DNA of 64,000 nucleotides from a virus: the IMG/VR virus record IMGVR_UViG_3300046170_000502, positions 113,352 through 177,351 of that record. The stretch is one strand, 5' to 3'. Position numbers and translations under genes: made by a program. Shown here piece by piece: positions 2,613-42,282 of the stretch. The notes under the pieces are model-generated. The model made no database searches. It was given only the letters and a program-made list of their open reading frames with translations, and was not told the DNA's origin. The stretch's first letter is position 1; the number at the start of each line of letters is the position of its first letter.

Positions 2613-5198
2613 CTATTCGGATATCACGAATGTGGCTGGATTTGACGTGGAGCTATTTGCAGCTCTATTTAATTTATCTAAATTAAAGACGTAATCTGCG
2701 TTGGGGTTAACTAATCCATTTTGGTCGCAAACTGTAAATTTATTGTTAACGTCAAAAGAATTGTTTAATTGTGTTCCGTTGGCGTATGACTGGTATGTGT
2801 ATGACGTACCTCCGTTAGGAGCCGTACCCCCTTCTGATACATTCTCAAACGTAATATTACTTGGGTTTATTGAGGTGGTACCTATTGGTGCTAAACCTGC
2901 GCCCAAACTATTTGGTGAGGCTATAACAGTTCTTGAGGTAAAACCTTCGAGAGTGTATGTGGGGTTGCTTGATATTGAAGTAGTTTCTATATTTGCTAAA
3001 TTAAAAGCTGACACCTGCCAATCAAACGTTCCTTTTGAGTCTGCATCGGATACCGTTAAGGTGTAAGCATTACTAGTTTTTCCAGAACCAGAAGCTGTTT
3101 GAGTGAGCTGGGAGGGGTTTATTTGGGAAGCGTCTACATTTAGTGTTGGTGAATTCAGCATTAGTTGACTTGTTGTTAAATTGAAATTATCACTGGTTGG
3201 AGATGTTGATGTTTTTATCTTTAAAGCTAGGTTATTTATATTTATTGTCAAAGGCGTGTTTGCTATATTTACAGTTTTATAAGATTCTAGGACTGCGCCG
3301 TTCGAGTCTCTGGTAGCTGTTATTCTTAGATTGCTTTGGCCGCCATCTCCATCTACATTATATCCTCCAGAAAGGTAATCCACGCTTTTATTTGTTTCAA
3401 ATAAGGATGGGTTACTTATTGTTATTTGATTGTTTGGTGATGTGTAGCTTATTAGGTCATGATTTATTACTATATTTTCTACGCTAGCTGATTCCGTAGA
3501 CTTTATAGCTTGTTGGTTGGCTGGGTACGTTACTGGGCCAAAGCTTATAGATGGAACTGTAGAGTTATGAATTTCCGCTTTATCAGCCGTTTCAACTGGA
3601 TCACTAATCGTTCCAAAATTGTTTATAGCCTTAAAGGTTGCACTTTGGTTCCCGTCTCTAGCTGAAGAGCCAAGCGGCCCAAATACATCAATTGGTACTG
3701 AGAATTCGAAGTTACCATTAGGTAGTGAGCTTTTCGAATAGTTTGAAGAAAATGAGGATTGACTTCCATCGCTAACTCCTAGGTTTTCGACCGATATAGA
3801 TATATCATTTATAGAAACTCCGTTTCCGTTTATTTCTATTTTTGAATTAACTACATCTCCAGCCTTAATTTGAGATGAACCTATAATATGAGGTGCGGAG
3901 GAAGAACTTGCTAGTGAATCTAATTGTGTTGAAACTATTACTGGGCCATTGGCGATTTTAACTTTTACTTTTTTTGTGTCAGTGGCTCCATTACCGGTTC
4001 TTACTGCGTAAATTTCTATGTTATCATTATTGTTATATATCCCGTTGACATAATCGACAGTTTTCGTTGCCTCAAAATCAATTTGATTTATCATTGATAT
4101 CTGTGGGTCTAATATTTCATAACTAACGAAATCTATTCCGTCTACCCAGTTGGATATTGAGTTTGAGAAGGTGGTTGATTCTCCTTCCCTTAAGCCATCT
4201 GACCTGCCGTTGTAAGATGATGGGTCTGATGCGGAGATTGTCGGATAAACTTGATCTAAGTCTCTGGTTCCACTATTATGACCAAAGTCAGAAGACTCTT
4301 TTAGGTCTCCTGTGCTACCAAATGAATCTACCGCTTGAACCGCTACAGATAAGGAGCCCTGTCTGTTCGAAATATCAACTGGTATTGTAGCTCTATATAA
4401 ACCATCTACGCTTTGTAATGAATAGTTTGCATAATTCACTTCTTCAGCCAAGCCAAAATCATGAACTTTAATTAAATCGACATCATTTCTATCAAAATCT
4501 ACATAAATATTGATAGAGTCCCCTTGTTTTAAATGGCTTGAACCTAAGGTCTCCCCGGGTTTGGCTGTTGCATTTTGAATTTCATCTATTAATACGTTAA
4601 CTGGAGTTGGCCCTCCTCCTAACTCTAATAGGGGTAATACGGAGGTTCTCCCGTTAGCTGAGCCAGTTATCCCTGTTAGACCTTCTGCGTTTAAGTTGTC
4701 GATGAAGCCCATAAATCTTCTAGTATCTGTACCTAGCTGAGATATGTTAGATTCGGGTATTTTTTGACCATTGATATAAGCTTCGCCCATGTACGTTTCA
4801 TTTGGTCCGTCCCATTTGAAATAAACCTTTAGGTCTTCTGCTGTAGCTACAGTAACTCCGGATAGAAAAGTGTTTGGATCTGGGGTGTTATAGAATGTTT
4901 TTTGAGTAACTCCGATATTATCTTCGATATCCGAGAAAAAGCAAAACTCAGATGCCCCAGATTGGATTTGTGATACTGATGTTCCTAATCTCGAGACATC
5001 GACCCCGTCAAGAGTTAAACCGCTTACGAAATTACCACTAATAAATTCAACACTATCAGAAGTTCTCACATTCTGATTCATTGAGAATTCTACGTCTCCA
5101 ATATATAAATTATCAAAAACACCCGTAGCCCAAGCCTTGTTTACTCTACCTACGCTACCTTCTCCGCTATTTCGTGGTACTAAATTTCTGGTTGCCAT
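2613..5198 (-). CDS. Large Ser/Asn/Gly-rich putative virion protein with internal duplication
   Basis: 861 aa, beta-rich composition; two related modules (GSSHLKQGD/GSSQIKAGD; FEATKTVDYVNG/FETNKSVDYLSG); GTGTAA motif upstream. Confidence 0.6.
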   Translation of the reverse strand: MATRNLVPRNSGEGSVGRVNKAWATGVFDNLYIGDVEFSMNQNVRTSDSVEFISGNFVSGLTLDGVDVSRLGTSVSQIQSGASEFCFFSDIEDNIGVTQKTFYNTPDPNTFLSGVTVATAEDLKVYFKWDGPNETYMGEAYINGQKIPESNISQLGTDTRRFMGFIDNLNAEGLTGITGSANGRTSVLPLLELGGGPTPVNVLIDEIQNATAKPGETLGSSHLKQGDSINIYVDFDRNDVDLIKVHDFGLAEEVNYANYSLQSVDGLYRATIPVDISNRQGSLSVAVQAVDSFGSTGDLKESSDFGHNSGTRDLDQVYPTISASDPSSYNGRSDGLREGESTTFSNSISNWVDGIDFVSYEILDPQISMINQIDFEATKTVDYVNGIYNNNDNIEIYAVRTGNGATDTKKVKVKIANGPVIVSTQLDSLASSSSAPHIIGSSQIKAGDVVNSKIEINGNGVSINDISISVENLGVSDGSQSSFSSNYSKSSLPNGNFEFSVPIDVFGPLGSSARDGNQSATFKAINNFGTISDPVETADKAEIHNSTVPSISFGPVTYPANQQAIKSTESASVENIVINHDLISYTSPNNQITISNPSLFETNKSVDYLSGGYNVDGDGGQSNLRITATRDSNGAVLESYKTVNIANTPLTININNLALKIKTSTSPTSDNFNLTTSQLMLNSPTLNVDASQINPSQLTQTASGSGKTSNAYTLTVSDADSKGTFDWQVSAFNLANIETTSISSNPTYTLEGFTSRTVIASPNSLGAGLAPIGTTSINPSNITFENVSEGGTAPNGGTSYTYQSYANGTQLNNSFDVNNKFTVCDQNGLVNPNADYVFNLDKLNRAANSSTSNPATFVISE

Positions 5199-30958: not shown

Positions 30959-31324
30959 TTATACACTTATACTTCGATATAGGTAAAAATCATCGTCAGT
31001 TAAACTATATATTAAAAAAGGTATACATAATTCATCAGAACTTTTTATATCACAAGAAGACGGCCTGGAGCCTCCATTCCAATGGCTATGAAAAATATAC
31101 TCAACTACATTATCTACTAAATTCATTGGATTAATTGCGAAAAAATATTTTTTATCAGGATGAATATTTTCGCAAGATTTGAATAAAAAACTATTATTAT
31201 GCTTTACTATTATACCACAACTCTCTTCTTCTTCAAACTTAAGCGCATAATTTTTGCATTGCAATAAAACTTCTTTAGGAATGTTATTCAACTGGGAATT
31301 TTTCCGTTCCAGGGAATCCTCCAA
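30959..31324 (-). CDS. JAB/MPN domain tail assembly protein (lambda K N-terminal half)
   Basis: EESCG...FHSHWNGGSRPSSCD; no NlpC/P60 domain; start may be TTG 31291. Confidence 0.85.
   Translation of the reverse strand: MEDSLERKNSQLNNIPKEVLLQCKNYALKFEEEESCGIIVKHNNSFLFKSCENIHPDKKYFFAINPMNLVDNVVEYIFHSHWNGGSRPSSCDIKSSDELCIPFLIYSLTDDDFYLYRSISV
30961..30966 (-). promoter_or_regulatory. Candidate late promoter GTGTAT
   Basis: 25 nt before ATG 30935; the leader contains AAGG. Confidence 0.5.
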
Positions 31325-32336
31325 ACGGAAGGCCTAAGGATGCTCCAGATTTATTGAAACTTGATAAAGAATCATCTCTGTCGCTAAATCTCTTTCCGCA
31401 TGAAGATAAAGTCTTCCTGCATTGATCTTTGATCCAGTGCTCTGAGTCAAAGAAAGGGTGCCTAGCTGCCGACCCGATATGATCCTTTTTGCATATAAAA
31501 ACTTGTGGTATTTTCTTGTAAGGGTCAGAAGAACTTTTGCCTATAATTTTAACTAATTCACCTCTTGTATATGAAGCCAGTTCATTCTTGGTCCCGCCAA
31601 GCCCATACTTATTCCATTCTGGAATATCTTTTATACCATCTGGGTATTTTGAACTATCACTAAAAGTTAAGGCTTCACCAGAAGAAGACTCTATAGCCAA
31701 CCCTCTATAGTTGCAACCAATATTACATCTATAAACCCATCCGCAAGAACCCGAAAGAACCACTCTAGCAGGAACCGGAGAGTTTTCTAATTCGAGGACT
31801 GACACCAGCTCAAATTGTATATATTGCTTATTTTCGTTACTTTTTTTATTTATATAATATACATCGTCAGGTAAATGAGATTCTGAATCTGCTTGTCCAA
31901 AAGGGTTACTTCCTTCTTGATTTTCGTTTCTATTTTGAAAATTTTCATCATCCAAAAACCTCGCATATGTCCTTTTTCTAGTTACCTTGCAATTAGAAAA
32001 GTCTTTATTAGAATGCACTATTCTAGAAAACAAGCCGTGAGGATTTGCAATTGTAAAAGTTGGCCTAGACAAGGTTCCGTCCGCCTTTTGCTCAAACCCC
32101 TCCATATTAACAGGTAAAGGTTGATAAGATTTTCCTTGCCAAATTATAGGGTTCGTGCCGTTTATCATTGGGCAAAACCTATAAACAGTATCCGCTCCAA
32201 TATTCACTCCGTACAAATCCTCAATCATTTCAAAATTAATCTGCAAATTACTAAAATCTATTTCATATAAATCTATCAAAGCATCAGGAGTCAGTGATAA
32301 AAGTTGTTTATTTAAATTTGATTGAGACTTACCCAT
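31284..32336 (-). CDS. Minor tail protein L-like
   Basis: LIDLYEID, IIWQGKSYQPLP, KVTRKRTYARFLD, C-terminal Cys cluster and PFGGFPG. Confidence 0.9.
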   Translation of the reverse strand: MGKSQSNLNKQLLSLTPDALIDLYEIDFSNLQINFEMIEDLYGVNIGADTVYRFCPMINGTNPIIWQGKSYQPLPVNMEGFEQKADGTLSRPTFTIANPHGLFSRIVHSNKDFSNCKVTRKRTYARFLDDENFQNRNENQEGSNPFGQADSESHLPDDVYYINKKSNENKQYIQFELVSVLELENSPVPARVVLSGSCGWVYRCNIGCNYRGLAIESSSGEALTFSDSSKYPDGIKDIPEWNKYGLGGTKNELASYTRGELVKIIGKSSSDPYKKIPQVFICKKDHIGSAARHPFFDSEHWIKDQCRKTLSSCGKRFSDRDDSLSSFNKSGASLGLPFGGFPGTEKFPVE

Positions 32337-32342
32337 AATATA

Positions 32343-34538
32343 TTATACTACAAAAATTTTAATTATCGAAGAAGAAGTGATATTTATACCTGTATGTTTA
32401 ATTATAACTCCCCCAGTATACTCTCCAGATTTAGACGGACTCAACCCTAAGGAAGATATTGAGTGTCCACTACCAGGGCTAGAAACTACATCAACATAAA
32501 CCTCAGACTTCGGCTGTATAATAGTTTTGCCATTATTTTCAAAAAGTTTAGTAACAACAAAATAATCACAATCAACAAAGGATGAATTTGCGGTTTTAAT
32601 TTGCCCCTTATTGTTTTGAAAGTAAAAATTGGATGCGCCAGAACCATCTGGAGTAAACTCGCCGTTAACAATTTTCATAGCTATAAATGAATGACCGCCG
32701 TCCGGCCCATCTGAATATGTTTTTGAAATTTTTACAAGTTTACCATTTAGACCAAAAGGCATTCCTGAAGTTGGTAGGTAAAAGATATAACCGCTTCTAT
32801 CAATATCCTTCGACAAAACCGACCCATGAATCAAGTTAAAACTCCTTCCTCCATCACTCACTGCTCCCATTGAATTTATAGAGACAACTTGATCTCCTAC
32901 ATTTTTAATATACAATCTCTTTTTTAATTTTTCATCTGCATAAATGGTTGAACCCACGTTTTCTTCGGACATTACAAATGGACTCGTTAAAAACACCTCG
33001 CCAGGCTGAAGAGGTGCGGGGGCAGATTGATTATCGTATTGCTGGGCGGAGTAATTAAAAGCGCATTGCTGAAACCTTGCTGTTATACTGTGATTATTCT
33101 TGTACGTATAAGTATGTTGCCACTCTTGGCATGTAAAATTTTGAAGCGTCTCATAAGGAGCAGGAGGAGTAAACAAAAAGGGAATACAACCATAATGCTG
33201 CTCAAGAAAATGTAATATAGCGTAAGCCTCAGAATCGTCTCTATTGTCAAACTTAAGGTCAAGCTCTAACAAACTTTCATTTATGCCGTCTTTATAGACT
33301 TGGGTATACCCACCAATCAAAGACAAATCCAACACTCTTGGTTTTTGAGAAACACTTAAACCAATAGACGGTTTCCAGAAAAATTCCCTAGACCAATAAT
33401 CTTTATTAATATCCTTAAAATGCCCATCCAATCTTGTCCATATTTGATTTTTTTGAACAGGTTTTAAATTATTATTTTGTTTTTTGCAATAATAGTATCT
33501 ATGATTTTCTGAATTAAAAACAACATCATTTCTCTCGTAGTACTCGCTTGAGCTGTATTCATCAGCCTTGTTTGTTAATAAGCTTTCAGATTTTTGTAAT
33601 AAAGAAGTATCAAGACTCCTTAACTTTACGGTTATATTATTACTGTTCTCAAAAGATAAATCGTGACTAAATTCACTGCAATAAAAATTTTTCGTCTGAA
33701 CCTCTAGGGAGTCATAAGGATGGAAAGTCGCACTTCCATCCCATCTAAAACCGGAAATACCCTGAGAGTACAATAAATTCTGAGAAGGTTTATCCTTCTC
33801 TTTTTGACCTTGATGATTCTCTAAAAAGTGGATGATTGCATTCGCTTCCCTATTTGTTCTATTTTCAAACTTCAAATCAACTTCAAAATTTAACGAGTTT
33901 ACCGTTTTTGGTTGCTTGATTGAATATCCATTTCCATAATCATAACTATAATTATTACAAGTAAAATTCGCAGTCGATCCATAATCCGCGTCAAAGAAAA
34001 ATTTATCAGCAGTCCAAAGATTATCGTTTTCACTTGGTGCAACATTTATTTCAGATAAAGTTAATTGATTTGCTCCTGAAATTTCCAACGAATTTATACC
34101 ATCAGATTCAATACCAACAACAGTAATAAGAGCACCAGTTAAAAGATAAGAATTATTTATAGAATTAACAACATCAGTTTCTATATTTAATATTTTATAT
34201 TTTCCATCATTATTTTTTAGAGAACCACTTAAAGAAATTAATTGGCCAACCTGAAAATCAGAACCAACAGAATATGGATCATTAAATCCATCAACTATAT
34301 AATGACCGCGACCTTCCGATGTGTACGGACCATCTGGCACAAGAGATAATCGATTGGAGTCCTGTATATTTGATCCTCCACCAAAAACCATATCCTCTCG
34401 CGCATAATAAAAAAGCCCATCACCAGTGCTGTATACAAAATCAAATTTTTTATAACTCACACCGGTTTCAAATATACCGCTATAATTTGATATATGAGAT
34501 AATTGCTCAGAGGCTAAGGCTGAATACAAATCTGACAT
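32343..34538 (-). CDS. Minor tail protein M-like (two M domains plus extra domains)
   Basis: Two copies of LKFxNR...EAxAIxHFLExHxG; FFWKPS; PFLFTPP. Confidence 0.8.
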   Translation of the reverse strand: MSDLYSALASEQLSHISNYSGIFETGVSYKKFDFVYSTGDGLFYYAREDMVFGGGSNIQDSNRLSLVPDGPYTSEGRGHYIVDGFNDPYSVGSDFQVGQLISLSGSLKNNDGKYKILNIETDVVNSINNSYLLTGALITVVGIESDGINSLEISGANQLTLSEINVAPSENDNLWTADKFFFDADYGSTANFTCNNYSYDYGNGYSIKQPKTVNSLNFEVDLKFENRTNREANAIIHFLENHQGQKEKDKPSQNLLYSQGISGFRWDGSATFHPYDSLEVQTKNFYCSEFSHDLSFENSNNITVKLRSLDTSLLQKSESLLTNKADEYSSSEYYERNDVVFNSENHRYYYCKKQNNNLKPVQKNQIWTRLDGHFKDINKDYWSREFFWKPSIGLSVSQKPRVLDLSLIGGYTQVYKDGINESLLELDLKFDNRDDSEAYAILHFLEQHYGCIPFLFTPPAPYETLQNFTCQEWQHTYTYKNNHSITARFQQCAFNYSAQQYDNQSAPAPLQPGEVFLTSPFVMSEENVGSTIYADEKLKKRLYIKNVGDQVVSINSMGAVSDGGRSFNLIHGSVLSKDIDRSGYIFYLPTSGMPFGLNGKLVKISKTYSDGPDGGHSFIAMKIVNGEFTPDGSGASNFYFQNNKGQIKTANSSFVDCDYFVVTKLFENNGKTIIQPKSEVYVDVVSSPGSGHSISSLGLSPSKSGEYTGGVIIKHTGINITSSSIIKIFVV

Positions 34539-36335: not shown

Positions 36336-39300
36336 TTAATCACTTAGTAATCCCCCTGGGCGCTGCTCCTCAACAATTACAGAAACAACTTGTTGCTTTA
36401 TTTTTTCCGCAAGCATGGTTGAGCTCTGCTCAGAGTCTGACTTTTCTACTGGATCCCGGTTTGATCCTGATGAGTTTGTTTTTGATGACCCTTTCTTACC
36501 CGCTTCTAAATTGATGGAAATATTTATATTATTAGTGCTTCCTCCCGAAATCCCTGACTCCGAAGAAGTGTTTATTGGAGATACCGACCCTCCATCATTA
36601 AATTTACCTGCATTAATTCTGTCAAGCGTCGGCTTACCGAGTTGACGAGCACTACTTGCGCGAATTACATATTCTCCCTCGCTGAGCATCGCTGGAATTT
36701 GATCGATGCCAGATTTTCCTGCGATGTGGCCACCGCTGGCGTATTTGCGAATTGAGCCGCCATAATAATTAGGCTTCCATGGCCCAAGTCGCGAATCTAT
36801 ATTAAATATTTTATCCATCGCACCAGGATTAAATCCACCACCACCACCTGCAATGTCGGAAACTAAGTCACTACCTTGCGCTATAGAACCCCAGCCCGCA
36901 CTTGGAGCTTTTAAGACGGTTCCTGTGCCAGTTGGCTTTGCAGAAAACAGACCCTTGCCACTACCCCCCCCACCAATACCATAACTTATTCCTGCACTTA
37001 AAGCGGTACCAAGTAATTGTTTCCAAAATGCCTTTTTCTTTGCCTTTTTTGCAGCTGCAGCCTGTCGAGCTCTTTCCTCTTCTGCAAGCACGCCAAGCAG
37101 AGATTCTCTATCTTCCCCGAGCCCAACGTTACCAGATTGACTATAAAAGAACCCGCTCATCGCTCGACTTTGGTGTGCTCGACCAGATTCGTAACCTCGT
37201 CCACCACCGAAGTTTGAAGCTAGGGCTGAGCCTGGAGCTGCGCCACCATTCGAATATCCGGGAATTTTTCCTCCAGCATTCAAACTATGCATAAAAGCTC
37301 CACCATATTTGTTTACGGCGCCTCGACCCATCACGTATTCTCCGTCGGTTACCATAGCAGGCACTCCTCCACCTCGACTGTAATTGCGAATAGACCCTCC
37401 TGTAGATTTTCCTGGCATTGGAATTGCTCCTACTATTTGATTGGCCGCAGCAGTAAGATATGCATTTTGTATAGCTTGCAGAAAATTCATAGCTACCCCT
37501 TGAAGAACATCGCCTAGATTTTCTGCTTGATTAATTGCGGCTCGCATACCAGAAACTAATCCGTTTCTAAAATTTGTAGCAACAATTCCACCAAGCTGAT
37601 GATCAAGTTCGGCAGCGCTTTCTCTCATTTTATTTTGCTCGCCGGCGAATCCATATTGAAATGCTTGAGGTCCAGTTTTTTGACTTAGTAAAGATTGCTC
37701 TGTTTGTTGTTCTGATAAAGCTTTGTTTTTTGCGAGCCTTTCTATTTCTTTGTAATCCCCCTTAAGTTTAGTCAATTGAGCTTTTTGAAATGCTAGAGTT
37801 AACGTAGTTCTTTCTTCTAAATTTGCTTTTTTCCCCAACGATTTCTAATATTTTTCTTCTTTCCTTTAAATTAGTTTTTGAGAATTTTTCTCCGCTTAAA
37901 TCATTTGTATCTTTCAAGTAATCCTTAAAAGATTGTTGATAATCTGTACTCATTAAAGTTTTTAAAACGTCTCCAGCTATTCCTTGCTCTGCTTTTATAT
38001 TAGATTTTTTCCTCTCCTTCTCTGCATTTTCTATTGCGTTAAGGTATGCAGCGTTAAATTTTTCCTCCTTAGTCATAAAATCCGCCCTAACTTTCATCAT
38101 AGATGCGTATTGATTATTCATCTCCGCTTGAGATGAAGTTGCTCTTTTTATTTGTTTATTAAATTTATTTTGAGAATCTAATGATATTTTTTGACTATTT
38201 ATTTGAAGAATTGTTGCTTCGTTTTGTTTAGATTGAGCAACGAAAGATTCATCCATTTTTTGAACCAATAATTTAGTAACCTTATCTAAATTTTCTAAAC
38301 CTTGTTCCCCTTCTAACATACCTGCAATCTTCTGCGCAAATTGTCCATAAGTTTGCATGCTTTTAGATTCTTCAGAAAAACTGATAGATCCGTTTTCGCC
38401 CTTCATTAAATCAGGAAACATATCTACAGTTGAAGACATGGAATCTAGAAGATTAAAAATAATCTCTCTTTGGGTCCCGCCTGTATTTTTTACATCAACA
38501 TTATATTTACTTAAATCTGCCTGAGCACTTTGCACTCTGTTTCTTAGCGCTTCATCTAAATCTCTCCCCCCTCCATATATTATTTGAGATTCATCTATTT
38601 TTTTCTGGCCGCTGGGTAAAGTTTTTGAAATTTGTCTAAATTCTTCAAATGAAGCTGGAACGCTTGGCAAAGTTTGGGAGAGAACATCTTTTACGGTTTT
38701 ATTGAGCATTGGATTTGTCTTCTTAACTATGGATTGCTGATTCGTAATTTCGCCAGTGGCTACATTTAAAACATCAGTTTTTTTCTCAAGTAAATTAGAG
38801 TTATCACCGAGAAACTTTCCCGCTGTCATCCCTCCTGCACCTCCTGGCCCAGAAAGCTCATTAACCATATCACCCAATGGCAAAAACGAAGCAAAAGATT
38901 TAGCTCTTTGCTCAGACTCTTCTTGTATGGTATTTGTTGACTGTTCCAGGCTTGACACCAATCCTCCCAATGCTCCAACTGCGGCACCTATTGCTGTTCC
39001 GAATCCAGGAAACATCATACCTATACCTGCGCCAGTTGCTGCCCCAGTTAACGCGCCAGACATCAGGCTGCCTCCTGAGCCAGGTTTTTCTGCCCCAGGA
39101 ATAAATCCCGCAAGCATTGGTAAGCCCATCATTAAACCCATGCCACCCATACCTGAACCCATACCTTTAACGCTTTGGGTTAATTTAGTTCTCAAAGTTC
39201 TATTAGCTTGAGTAACCCTTTGAACGGCTGATTCATTTGCTTTGTATTTTTGCCCAAGACTAGTAACTATTTGCGCTAATTTTTCCTGACCTTTCCTACC

Positions 39301-42282
39301 TTTTGGTAATTGCTTGAGTTCTTGCTTTAATTCTTTGTTTAATTTAAGCATTAACCTATTTCTCTCTTTTCTATTGCCTGCAGAGCTTTCTATATCTGAG
39401 GTTTGGAAATAATCTTGAGCATAATTAGGAACAAATCCATTCGCACCAAATACATCGCGCAATCCATTTGGTTCGTCTTGTGTGTTGGTTACGCCGAGAC
39501 CAATTGGGTTACTTTTATTCATTAATGCTGGATGAGAACCGACACGAATTTGAGAGACAGGAACGCCAGCTTCTTTTTCTCTACCTATTGCATCTGATAA
39601 TGGATTGGCGAAGTTGGGAATAAACCCCGAGGCGTAACCCTTCGGTTTAAGTTTGTTTTGTTGTTGAGATTTATTAAACTTAGCTTGCTTAAGTACTTTT
39701 TTTCTAAAAGAAGCTTTATTTCCTGAACTTCGGTCATCGCTTTTGTAATCAGCTAATGTCATACCATCAGGAAAACCATCAAAAGCTTTTGACAATAACC
39801 CTAAATCCCCACCTCGAACATCGAAGTCTCCCTCATCCTTACCTCTCTTTGACGCAGAATAATCTAAAGCAGAATTAACTGCAGCTTCAAATAAAGCCCC
39901 TACCGCAGCTTTCCATGCTCCCTTTGCTCCGCCAGCAGTGTCGGACTGCATAGTTTTCCAGATCTTATCTCGACTAACTGGACCTCTCTCTAGAACTTTG
40001 GAGATTTTTGAAGCATACTTACTTCCTGTCGACTTGAAGTCACCCTCAACCATTTTGCTTAAAGATGGGTCGGTTTGAGCGTCAGGCCTTAAGGAATAGA
40101 CTGGCCACGTAAGATCGCTGTAGCTAGCAAAAGGTTTGCCGCTATAGCCTTCAGGGGGAACAAGCATTGCGGCTAAAGACTTTTTTGGGCTCTTTAGGGC
40201 TTGGCTTTCTTTATAAGACTTTACAAGCGCTGCCGGAGATAAATTTTGAAGTTTATTTGTTTCTGCGTATTGACGAAGAGCGTTGTATGCTCCCGTGGCC
40301 TTAGTATTACTCGAGGAAGTGCCAGTTCTTATTTCTGCGAATTTTTTAAAAGCTCCGACATCCATATAAGTATTTGGAACATCTTTTACTCTCGCATAGT
40401 TCGGTATATATCCCCCTGCCGCATATGGATCGAATCCATGAACATCCCCAAATGCTTGTTGATAATTTTTTCCAGCTTTGCTTGAATGAGGAGGCATAAT
40501 TGCAGGCTGCTTAAATCCTGCGAAATTTTTAACAGTCTCCGCGCTGTTATATATTACCGAGCCTTCGCCAGGCATTTTCATACTACGAATACTTCCTGCA
40601 GCATATCCACCCTGTGCTGCTTGAGTTCGTTCGGGATTTGCGAAATTTGGAATATGCCCACCAGCTCTTCCTCTTCTTGGTGCAAGATTCGAGCCATACC
40701 CCTGTTTATATAAAGTGCTTGCAGCCTGCTTACTTATCGAATTAAGAGCATTAGCTTCTAAAACTTGAGCCTTCAGCAAGCTTAAGATGATTTTTTCTTT
40801 CTCTGTTCGGCTTATATCTGTCCTAAGCATCTCTTTACTCAAGGCGGAGCTCTGACTGAATAAGTTAACGAGAGACGTTTGAATAGATTTTTGCTTTTGA
40901 GCCTCACTTGTGACGCCAATCAAAGATTTTAGACTTTCATGTGCATACTGAGCGGCTTTCACTAACAATTTGCCAAAAACAGCGACCATCATAACCAAAC
41001 CGGGTCCAGTTATAATATTTCCCAATCCTTTCAAGAACCCTTGTGCAAATGTACTTCCAGCACCTTCTCCGCTACCAAGCAAACCTCCAAGTCCTTCTGC
41101 CGCACTTTTTACAATATTTAAAACTTTCTCCATGCCAGGGGCAAGCATGATTTCCCCAATTTGTGAGCTTACCTGTTTTAGTGCTAGACCCGTCTCAGTC
41201 GCCATGGCGGACATTGTATTTCTTAATTGCTCATTTTTCTGTATCGCTTCATCAGTTGCTCCGGCAGAAATTTGCGTTGCACTCGCGAGAATACCGTTTT
41301 GTTTTGCGGCATCACTAAGCACAGCCTTTAATACATTAATCTGAAAAACGCCCCCGACTGTTTGTGCGATTTGTGCTTGCTGAGCTGCAGTTAATGTATC
41401 AAAAGTATTAGCAAGATCAGTTAGTATTCTTTTTGCACCAATAGTGTTTCCTTCTAAATCTCGAACAGCGATGCCCAAATCTTCCAATTGATTTAAAGTG
41501 TCAGTTCTTCCAATTCTAGTGAAAATTGTCTTGAAGGAGTTTCCGATAACCTTACCACCTCGAGCGGTTTTCTGTTGAGCTGCAGTAACTAAACCAACTA
41601 ATTCATTAATATCAACTCCAGCGCTTTTTGCCGCTTGACCAGTCCTAGAAATAGCGTCCGCAAAATCTTCTGCGCTAACGGCAAACTTAACATCTACTGC
41701 CGCAAACTTACTTACTAGTTGAGTAGTATCTTTTATTTGATCGCCATACGTATTCATTGCAGCAGTTAAAGCTTTTACTGCTGCTGCAGAATCCATGCCC
41801 GTTAACCTTGTTAATATCAAAGCGTCTTTCGTCCGCTTAAGAGACTCCTCAACACTCAAACCTTGTCTAGCATATTCTGTTGCTGCATCAGCAGCAATTT
41901 TAAATGCAGCACCAGTTTCCTTTGCGACTTTAAATAAGCCGTCGCCAAATTTATCTAAATTTTGAGCGCTTAAACCCATAACAACGTTAATGTCCGCAAG
42001 AGATTTTTCAACTTCAACCATGTTTTTGACCATGACTTTGAAAGCGTCAGACACGCCGTTAATGATTGCCATACTTGCCCCGAAAGCAATGATACGAGCA
42101 TTCGCAGCTTCCATTGATTTTGAGAACTCATCAGCTCCGCGTTTCATATTCCCAAGCGGTTGAGTTGCTCCCTTATCATCCACTGTGATTTTAATGGGAG
42201 TTTTCCTTATTCTGGTTACAGCCGCTTGAACAGCCGCCTCAAGAGGAGCTGTATTACCGTTTACATTTAGATTTATAGCCAT
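36336..42282 (-). CDS. Tape measure protein (~1,980 aa; frameshift in the T6 run at 37827-37832)
   Basis: TP901-type core (EYARQG, LTRLTGMD, FKTIFTRI); C-terminal GG...PAMLSEGEYV motifs; removing one A joins the two ORFs (VGEKANLEERTTL). Confidence 0.88.

Follow-up and report, generated by a model that had tools for sequence, protein, structure and literature searches.

Tape measure proteins (TMPs) set the length of the phage tail, are the first to leave it and presumably guide DNA through the cell envelope; they belong to the least understood virion proteins. TMPs with embedded enzymes are already a known kind, and so are carrier proteins with peptide-demarcated variable modules. TMPs of mycobacteriophages (e.g., TM4) carry Rpf-like or peptidase motifs, and TMP processing is known for T5 pb2 and lambda gpH. 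The polymorphic toxins CdiA and Rhs possess the demarcating peptides VENN and PxxxxDPxGL, respectively. The contacts that the TMP of lambda-like phages and phage Bas14 makes with inner-membrane proteins of the host and with a defence nuclease depend on its variable regions (bioRxiv 10.1101/2025.11.03.685801). Here we describe a TMP encoded in a 64,000-nucleotide stretch of viral DNA (positions 113,352 to 177,351 of the IMG/VR record IMGVR_UViG_3300046170_000502; hereafter the window), the source of which is a large uncultured marine siphophage. The middle third of this protein consists of modules strung together, with a short peptide motif between them, and one of the modules, here called the cargo domain, combines strong divergence with an invariant set of polar residues. 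We favour, with a probability of about 0.5, a reading in which the TMP is modular, the polar set of the cargo domain represents a functional site, the domain acts at host entry and the motif is a functional peptide.

An open reading frame (ORF) at 37768–42282 encodes the first 1504 amino acids (aa) of the TMP (P0001). It is located on the minus strand, as are all features of the TMP gene given below, and aa positions refer to its product. The motif occurs in this product four times: AGGHIPNFA (motif 1; aa 540–548; 40639–40665), the position of which is kept in homologues, YAAGGYIPNYA (motif 2; aa 620–630; 40393–40425) at a conserved-to-variable border, YASGFIPNFA (motif 3; aa 883–892; 39607–39636) at a variable-to-conserved border, and FGANGFVPNYA (motif 4; aa 945–955; 39418–39450), again at a conserved-to-variable border. 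All four had been listed in an earlier note on this DNA, made by a model from the letters, and their positions agree with it except for the start of motif 4, which was given one base off (39419). Across the window, no further [IV]PN[FY]A was found in any of the six frames. Among 20,000 shuffled versions of the TMP, the string [IV]PN[FY] was encountered on average 0.015 times per protein, and a count of four was reached in none of them; the four copies are far above chance. A consensus derived from 972 occurrences in 249 proteins reads A(−4, 74%)-x-G(−2, 88%)-[YFH]-[IV]-P-N-[FY]-A(73%).

The motifs separate segments of very different conservation. Module A (aa 549–619; 40426–40638), placed between motifs 1 and 2, and module B (aa 893–944; 39451–39606), placed between motifs 3 and 4, are both near-invariant and have a fixed motif-to-motif spacing of 82 aa (seen 102 times) and 63–64 aa (seen 143 times), respectively; module A has no Pfam or PHROG match, and module B has no match in PHROGs. 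The interval between motifs 2 and 3 (aa 631–882; 39637–40392) is occupied by the variable cargo domain. To profile the borders, 108 homologues were anchored on each motif, and the identity to the window TMP was calculated per position. At motif 2, the identity amounts to 95–100% up to the motif and to 0–12% from five residues after it onwards; at motif 3 it is 5–20% before and about 80% after; at motif 4 it is about 83% before and 0–20% after. A conserved peptide exactly at the border of a conserved carrier and a variable module is what characterizes polymorphic effector and toxin carriers, and this arrangement is found here.

The homologues were also compared with the window TMP segment by segment. 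The N-terminus (aa 1 to ~535) is 78–88% identical in homologues (59–63% in a diverged group), module A 79–94% (53–64% in the diverged group) and module B 79–96% (72–81%). The cargo domain shows 16–58% identity, far from an invariant interval, and the first 500 aa after module B mostly 22–30%. Relatives with 84–88% N-terminal identity possess a cargo only about 20% identical to that of the window, whereas in the group with 59–63% N-terminal identity the cargo reaches 35–40%. The identity of the cargo is therefore uncoupled from that of the backbone, which cannot be explained by uniformly faster evolution and implies exchange of the segment. The closest IMG/VR relative (contig L001) has a cargo 91% identical to that of the window and carries, between motif 3 and module B, an exact extra module of 100 aa accompanied by one more copy of IPNFA (4048–4590 of that contig, plus strand); both are missing from the corresponding part of the window (39451–39636). 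Further relatives contain an extra module of 93, 127 or 250 aa in a similar slot, bounded by another copy of the motif. None of the extra modules has a Pfam match, and the one of L001 has no PHROG match either. At the motif borders, entire modules are acquired, lost and swapped.

The earlier note had proposed that the motifs delimit exchangeable cassettes. The sharp borders, the uncoupled identities and the extra modules speak for this proposal; however, the main slot holds only one family. The intervals that extend from motif 2 to the following motif, 120 in number, are all linked to each other by BLAST (single linkage), so different domains, for which the note had suggested looking in this interval among homologues, were not found. 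Unrelated modules were detected in the additional slots only, and the variable slot itself, unlike that of toxin carriers, does not house unrelated domains. The likeness to CdiA and Rhs consists of a short peptide at the border between carrier and variable module and of a module similarity that is uncoupled from that of the carrier. In contrast to these toxins, the variable module of the window TMP is internal and bordered on both sides, its alleles belong to one family, and the carrier is a virion protein for which no immunity gene is implied.

The architecture is constant among the 120 closest homologues. Motif 1 is separated from motif 2 almost always by 82 aa (range 80–84), the distance from motif 2 to the next motif varies between 234 and 340 aa, and the last two motifs are 63–64 aa apart. 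More distant members (approximately 130) contain from 3 to 14 copies of the motif with recurrent spacings of 22, 35, ~55, 63–66 and 82 aa, and the module array appears able to expand greatly. The family is large: a word-indexed search with aa 530–970 as a query yielded at least 535 protein clusters, and 228 representatives (50% identity) were recovered when an interval profile was run by HMMER against the complete set of 1.84 billion. All of the latter are long TMP-like proteins or their fragments, with the domain always located near aa 600–900, and a search for free-standing copies of the cargo domain returned only short proteins resembling fragments or miscalled ORFs. Two very long relatives, P0156 (3187 aa) and P0205 (4611 aa), have up to 14 motif copies, and one of them possesses two cargo-type domains.

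The cargo domain contains the strings GALFEAAV, GDFDVRG and LADYK to which the earlier note drew attention. Its N-terminal half is barely alignable between subfamilies. The C-terminal core (aa 785–870; 39673–39930) is conserved and includes the residues G795, F798, E799, D821, D845-x-K847 and K862, which are invariant or nearly so in homologues; the codons of E799 are located at 39886–39888, of D821 at 39820–39822, of the DYK triplet at 39742–39750 and of K862 at 39697–39699. In 245 sequences, G795, E799 and K847 are conserved in 100% of cases, K862 in 98% and F798 in 95%, while position 845 is always acidic (E in 51%, D in 49%). D821 is invariant in a domain-level alignment (A3) of 68 sequences. 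The order E...D...[DE]xK is unspecific in a single sequence, as 10 such ordered triples can be found within aa 631–882; a functional site is likely because the signature is invariant across about 245 homologues and not because of its order in one protein. Taken together, these alignments establish the cargo as one divergent domain family, seen here in TMPs alone, with an enzyme-like invariant polar set.

Structure prediction agrees with the suggestion that this interval is unlike the helical TMP, as a globular alpha/beta domain is predicted instead of a plain helix. An AlphaFold2 model of the whole interval built with 35 sequences has a mean predicted local distance difference test score (pLDDT) of 76; a model of the core (aa 697–895) built with 68 sequences reaches a pLDDT of 84.5 and a predicted TM-score (pTM) of 0.75. 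In the core model, which is a confident one, three N-terminal strands are followed by three helices, the third of which bears G795 and E799. A loop leads from there to a short strand that begins directly behind D821; next come a short helix, a strand with D845-Y-K847 at its end, and a long helix with K862.

The order of these residues had led the earlier note to propose a nuclease-like segment of the PD-(D/E)XK type, and its further inference was that the TMP may inject this protein into the cell together with DNA. In such a scenario, the cargo would be a genuine PD-(D/E)XK nuclease, freed by cleavage of the TMP at the motifs and acting as a polymorphic effector. The domain does share with this superfamily, represented here by four families and by Bse634I (PDB 1knv), an ordered series of residues, namely Glu on a helix, Asp on a strand, (D/E)xK and a Lys further downstream, so that the conserved D...(D/E)xK with an upstream helix Glu expected of such enzymes is present. 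E, D, (D/E)xK and the downstream K are invariant or nearly so in about 245 sequences that are otherwise less than 20% identical, and in the model they are predicted to lie on a helix, at a strand start, on a strand and on a helix, as in PD-(D/E)XK nucleases. The cargo is also basic (all 120 intervals have an isoelectric point (pI) of 9.35–10.4), and its borders resemble those of polymorphic toxins.

Nevertheless, no match to a fold, family, PDB sequence or profile accompanies this invariant signature. The cargo interval has no match in Pfam (35 members were searched, none giving a match even at E ≤ 1), NCBIfam or PHROGs. A sequence-profile search of PDB gave nothing either, the best E being 0.1, to a designed protein. 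Foldseek returned nothing significant from PDB (the first model reached E 0.45 at best, the second 1.9) or from BFVD (best E 0.75). We also compared the core by hhalign with our own alignments of four PD-(D/E)XK families built from Bacteroidota genomes, namely Mrr_cat (PF04471), YraN (PF02021), NERD (PF08378) and PDDEXK_1 (PF12705). The resulting P values were 0.29, 0.18, 0.83 and 0.53, respectively; the alignment with Mrr_cat pairs FE with FE, D with GID and K with QxK, without significance. The control comparisons gave P of 5e-10 for YraN vs. NERD, 2e-4 for Mrr_cat vs. YraN, 8e-4 for Mrr_cat vs. NERD and 0.018 for YraN vs. PDDEXK_1, but 0.26 for Mrr_cat vs. PDDEXK_1 and 0.12 for NERD vs. PDDEXK_1; the test has power but is not fully sensitive, since the last two true pairs fail in it. 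The model deviates from the canonical fold as well: it lacks a strand (beta-1) between E and D, and a helix is predicted between the strands of D and (D/E)xK, where the canonical fold has the beta-2/beta-3 hairpin. In addition, the alleles all belong to one family and not to diverse toxin folds, and no free-standing homologue was found among the representatives scanned. Membership in the PD-(D/E)XK superfamily is not established by these sequence and model comparisons, and we regard a released PD-(D/E)XK effector as unlikely. The chance that the cargo domain is a nuclease of any fold lies, by our estimate, somewhere between one in four and one in three.

A different explanation for the diversification of the cargo is non-catalytic. 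The domain may be an interaction module with a protein of the host inner membrane or periplasm, or else the leading end of the DNA, as its ligand, or it may itself be recognised by host defence proteins; it would diversify in response to this pressure, its invariant charges holding the fold or a ligand. The precedent is given by lambda-like phages and Bas14, in which the dependence on ManYZ is set by a variable region of the TMP, and the TMP is bound by the defence protein SNIPE (bioRxiv 10.1101/2025.11.03.685801). Compared by description, these TMPs resemble that of the window in having a localised divergent segment that determines host interaction (ManYZ use, SNIPE recognition); they differ from it in that the segment is short, lies within a helical TMP and has neither a bracketing motif nor an invariant polar site. 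Hypervariability with cassette exchange between flanks that are 80–95% identical would fit such a role, as would the variable N-terminal half that cannot be aligned between subfamilies, the location of the domain between two hydrophobic stretches of the TMP, and the failure of the family, profile and fold searches to match an enzyme. On the other hand, an E, a D, a D/E and two K kept invariant at an otherwise 15–25% identity are more typical of catalysis or metal binding, and no partner is known. We consider a purely non-catalytic module possible, though doubtful.

Wall hydrolases are, to our knowledge, the only well-documented enzymes embedded in TMPs (mycobacteriophage TM4, T5 pb2), and the cargo could by analogy be a new envelope-degrading enzyme acting on peptidoglycan or another wall polymer. 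A Pfam search found no recognised lytic domain in the TMP, and a helix Glu followed by a strand Asp about 22 residues later recalls the acid/base pairs of lysozyme type. However, the searches gave no match to folds or families of lysozymes, transglycosylases or peptidases, and two invariant lysines are atypical of glycosidase sites. The domain is also located N-terminally to the hydrophobic segment, while the lytic domains known from other TMPs tend to be found nearer to the C-terminal, first-ejected end. Such an activity therefore seems rather improbable. The window TMP and those of TM4 and T5 have in common a non-helical domain, of putative function in the former and functional in the latter, inside a long helical protein that leaves the tail at infection; the latter domains belong to known wall-hydrolase families, in contrast to the domain of the window, which is unmatched, bracketed by motifs and exchanged as a cassette.

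The polar set is made up of G-x-x-F-E, carried by a helix, of a D that opens a strand, of (D/E)-x-K in the strand after it and of a K in the helix that comes next. In our favoured reading of a modular TMP with a functional cargo site, this set would bind a metal, a phosphate or nucleic acid, or be catalytic; most likely it would serve metal-dependent phosphoryl transfer or the binding of nucleic acid, in a fold unseen in solved structures. We hypothesize that the TMP takes the cargo domain along when it exits the tail, that the domain acts at the host envelope or directly behind it while the DNA enters, and that its variable half may have been shaped by host-specific contacts, either with targets or with defence proteins.

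Several points weigh against this reading. The C-terminal part of the TMP is as variable as the cargo (22–30% identity in most homologues), so variability is not special to the domain; likewise, with a median pI of 9.4 for the entire TMP, little can be concluded from the basic nature of the domain. The invariant charges may instead have a structural role, such as in inter-subunit salt bridges of a TMP trimer. The connection of the D strand to the (D/E)xK strand contains a predicted helix (core residues 131–137), which makes the geometry of the putative site uncertain. Finally, three copies of a folded 28-kDa domain are hard to fit in the lumen of a tail tube.

As for the motif itself, we suggest that it is a functional short linear motif within flexible Gly/Ala-rich linkers, serving as a docking site for an assembly partner or as a processing site. 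Motif 3 is modelled with low confidence (pLDDT 52–60) and without secondary structure in the core model and is predicted to be flexible. A role as a DNA-level recombination site was rejected: the four copies in the window differ in their codons, which points to selection on the peptide and not at the DNA level. The members that diverge most have Arg or Lys in place of Asn; in the distant TMPs P0172, P0185, P0187 and P0199, the motif takes the form G-x-[IVLM]-P-R-[FY]-A/Q, with the variants IPRFA, LPRYA and VPRYQ, so Asn is not indispensable. This substitution disfavours Asn-dependent self-cleavage as a general mechanism and thereby also the idea of a nuclease freed in this way. A literature search with the motif strings found nothing relevant. 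A more far-reaching version of these ideas, in which the TMP is a modular delivery vehicle, the motifs are processing or release sites, and the domain is a metal-dependent nuclease or DNA-end-handling enzyme of a new fold, ejected along with the genome and with alleles engaged in an arms race with host defence systems, has in our view only a slim chance of being correct; if true, it would make the TMP a phage-virion counterpart of polymorphic toxin systems.

The motif, the domain and their combination in a virion protein are unmatched in the family libraries searched, and the TMP-specific architecture and the domain are new. The TMP family is abundant in marine viromes. It follows a simple grammar, with a 9-residue motif at every border between conserved and swappable parts, and the motif can serve as a practical marker for annotating such TMPs. 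If catalytic, the domain would represent a new class of virion-delivered enzyme; if an interaction surface, it would be a defined, swappable element that decides on entry into the host or on escape from its defences.

The assignment of the gene as a TMP is based on both its domain content and its position. The product of 37768–42282 contains PF10145 (PhageMin_Tail) at aa 120–311 (E 2.8e-28; 99.6 bits vs. the Pfam cut-off of 33.2) and is matched by 14 PHROG tape-measure families (best E 2e-50). As expected of a TMP, it is a very long protein encoded upstream of minor tail protein genes, with minor tail PHROGs matched at 31284–34538. The TMP continues in the next frame as a 500-aa product (36336–37838), identified by alignment of a homologue and by matches to TMP C-terminal PHROGs. 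Residues 1–1515 of the homologue P0029 (1968 aa) align to 42282–37810, and residues 1506–1968 align to 37838–36339; as this alignment spans both ORFs, the true TMP is about 1980 aa long, and its gene is split in the window by a frame break near 37810–37838. The break is located in an A-rich run and probably stems from an error of the assembly, not from the biology of the phage.

The module region is flanked on either side by a hydrophobic stretch. The first (aa 417–447; 40942–41034; Kyte–Doolittle score above 1.4 in a 19-residue window) is located N-terminally to the modules, and the second is a Gly/Met-rich, glycine-zipper-like segment at a hydrophobicity peak (aa 1040–1112; 38947–39165), with which the TMP probably inserts into a membrane; the Pfam matches to glycine zippers, at aa 1076–1122, are weak and fall under the curated cut-offs. 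If both stretches insert, the modules might be placed on one side of the membrane.

The relatives of the gene encode metagenomic phage TMPs. Neither a tblastn search of 50,697 GenBank phage records with modules A–cargo–B nor megablast with 20 kb around the TMP gene gave a match. IMG/VR contigs bearing the TMP gene are up to 184 kb long. The module region was matched in reference genomes only by two short contigs (L187 and L188; 1.1 and 8.3 kb) of a Flavobacteriaceae metagenome-assembled genome (MAG), RFXU01. Such MAG matches are a weak hint at the host at best, as binning of phage contigs is unreliable. Other matches to the module region have NCBI names that point to MAGs of Crocinitomicaceae and Paracoccaceae.

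The C-terminal part of the TMP (36336–37838, as well as in homologues such as P0038) contains repeated units of the G-G-x-V-P-A-M...G-E-Y-V type, which match TMP PHROGs. Module A (PGEGSVIYNSAETV), judged by eye, loosely resembles these units.

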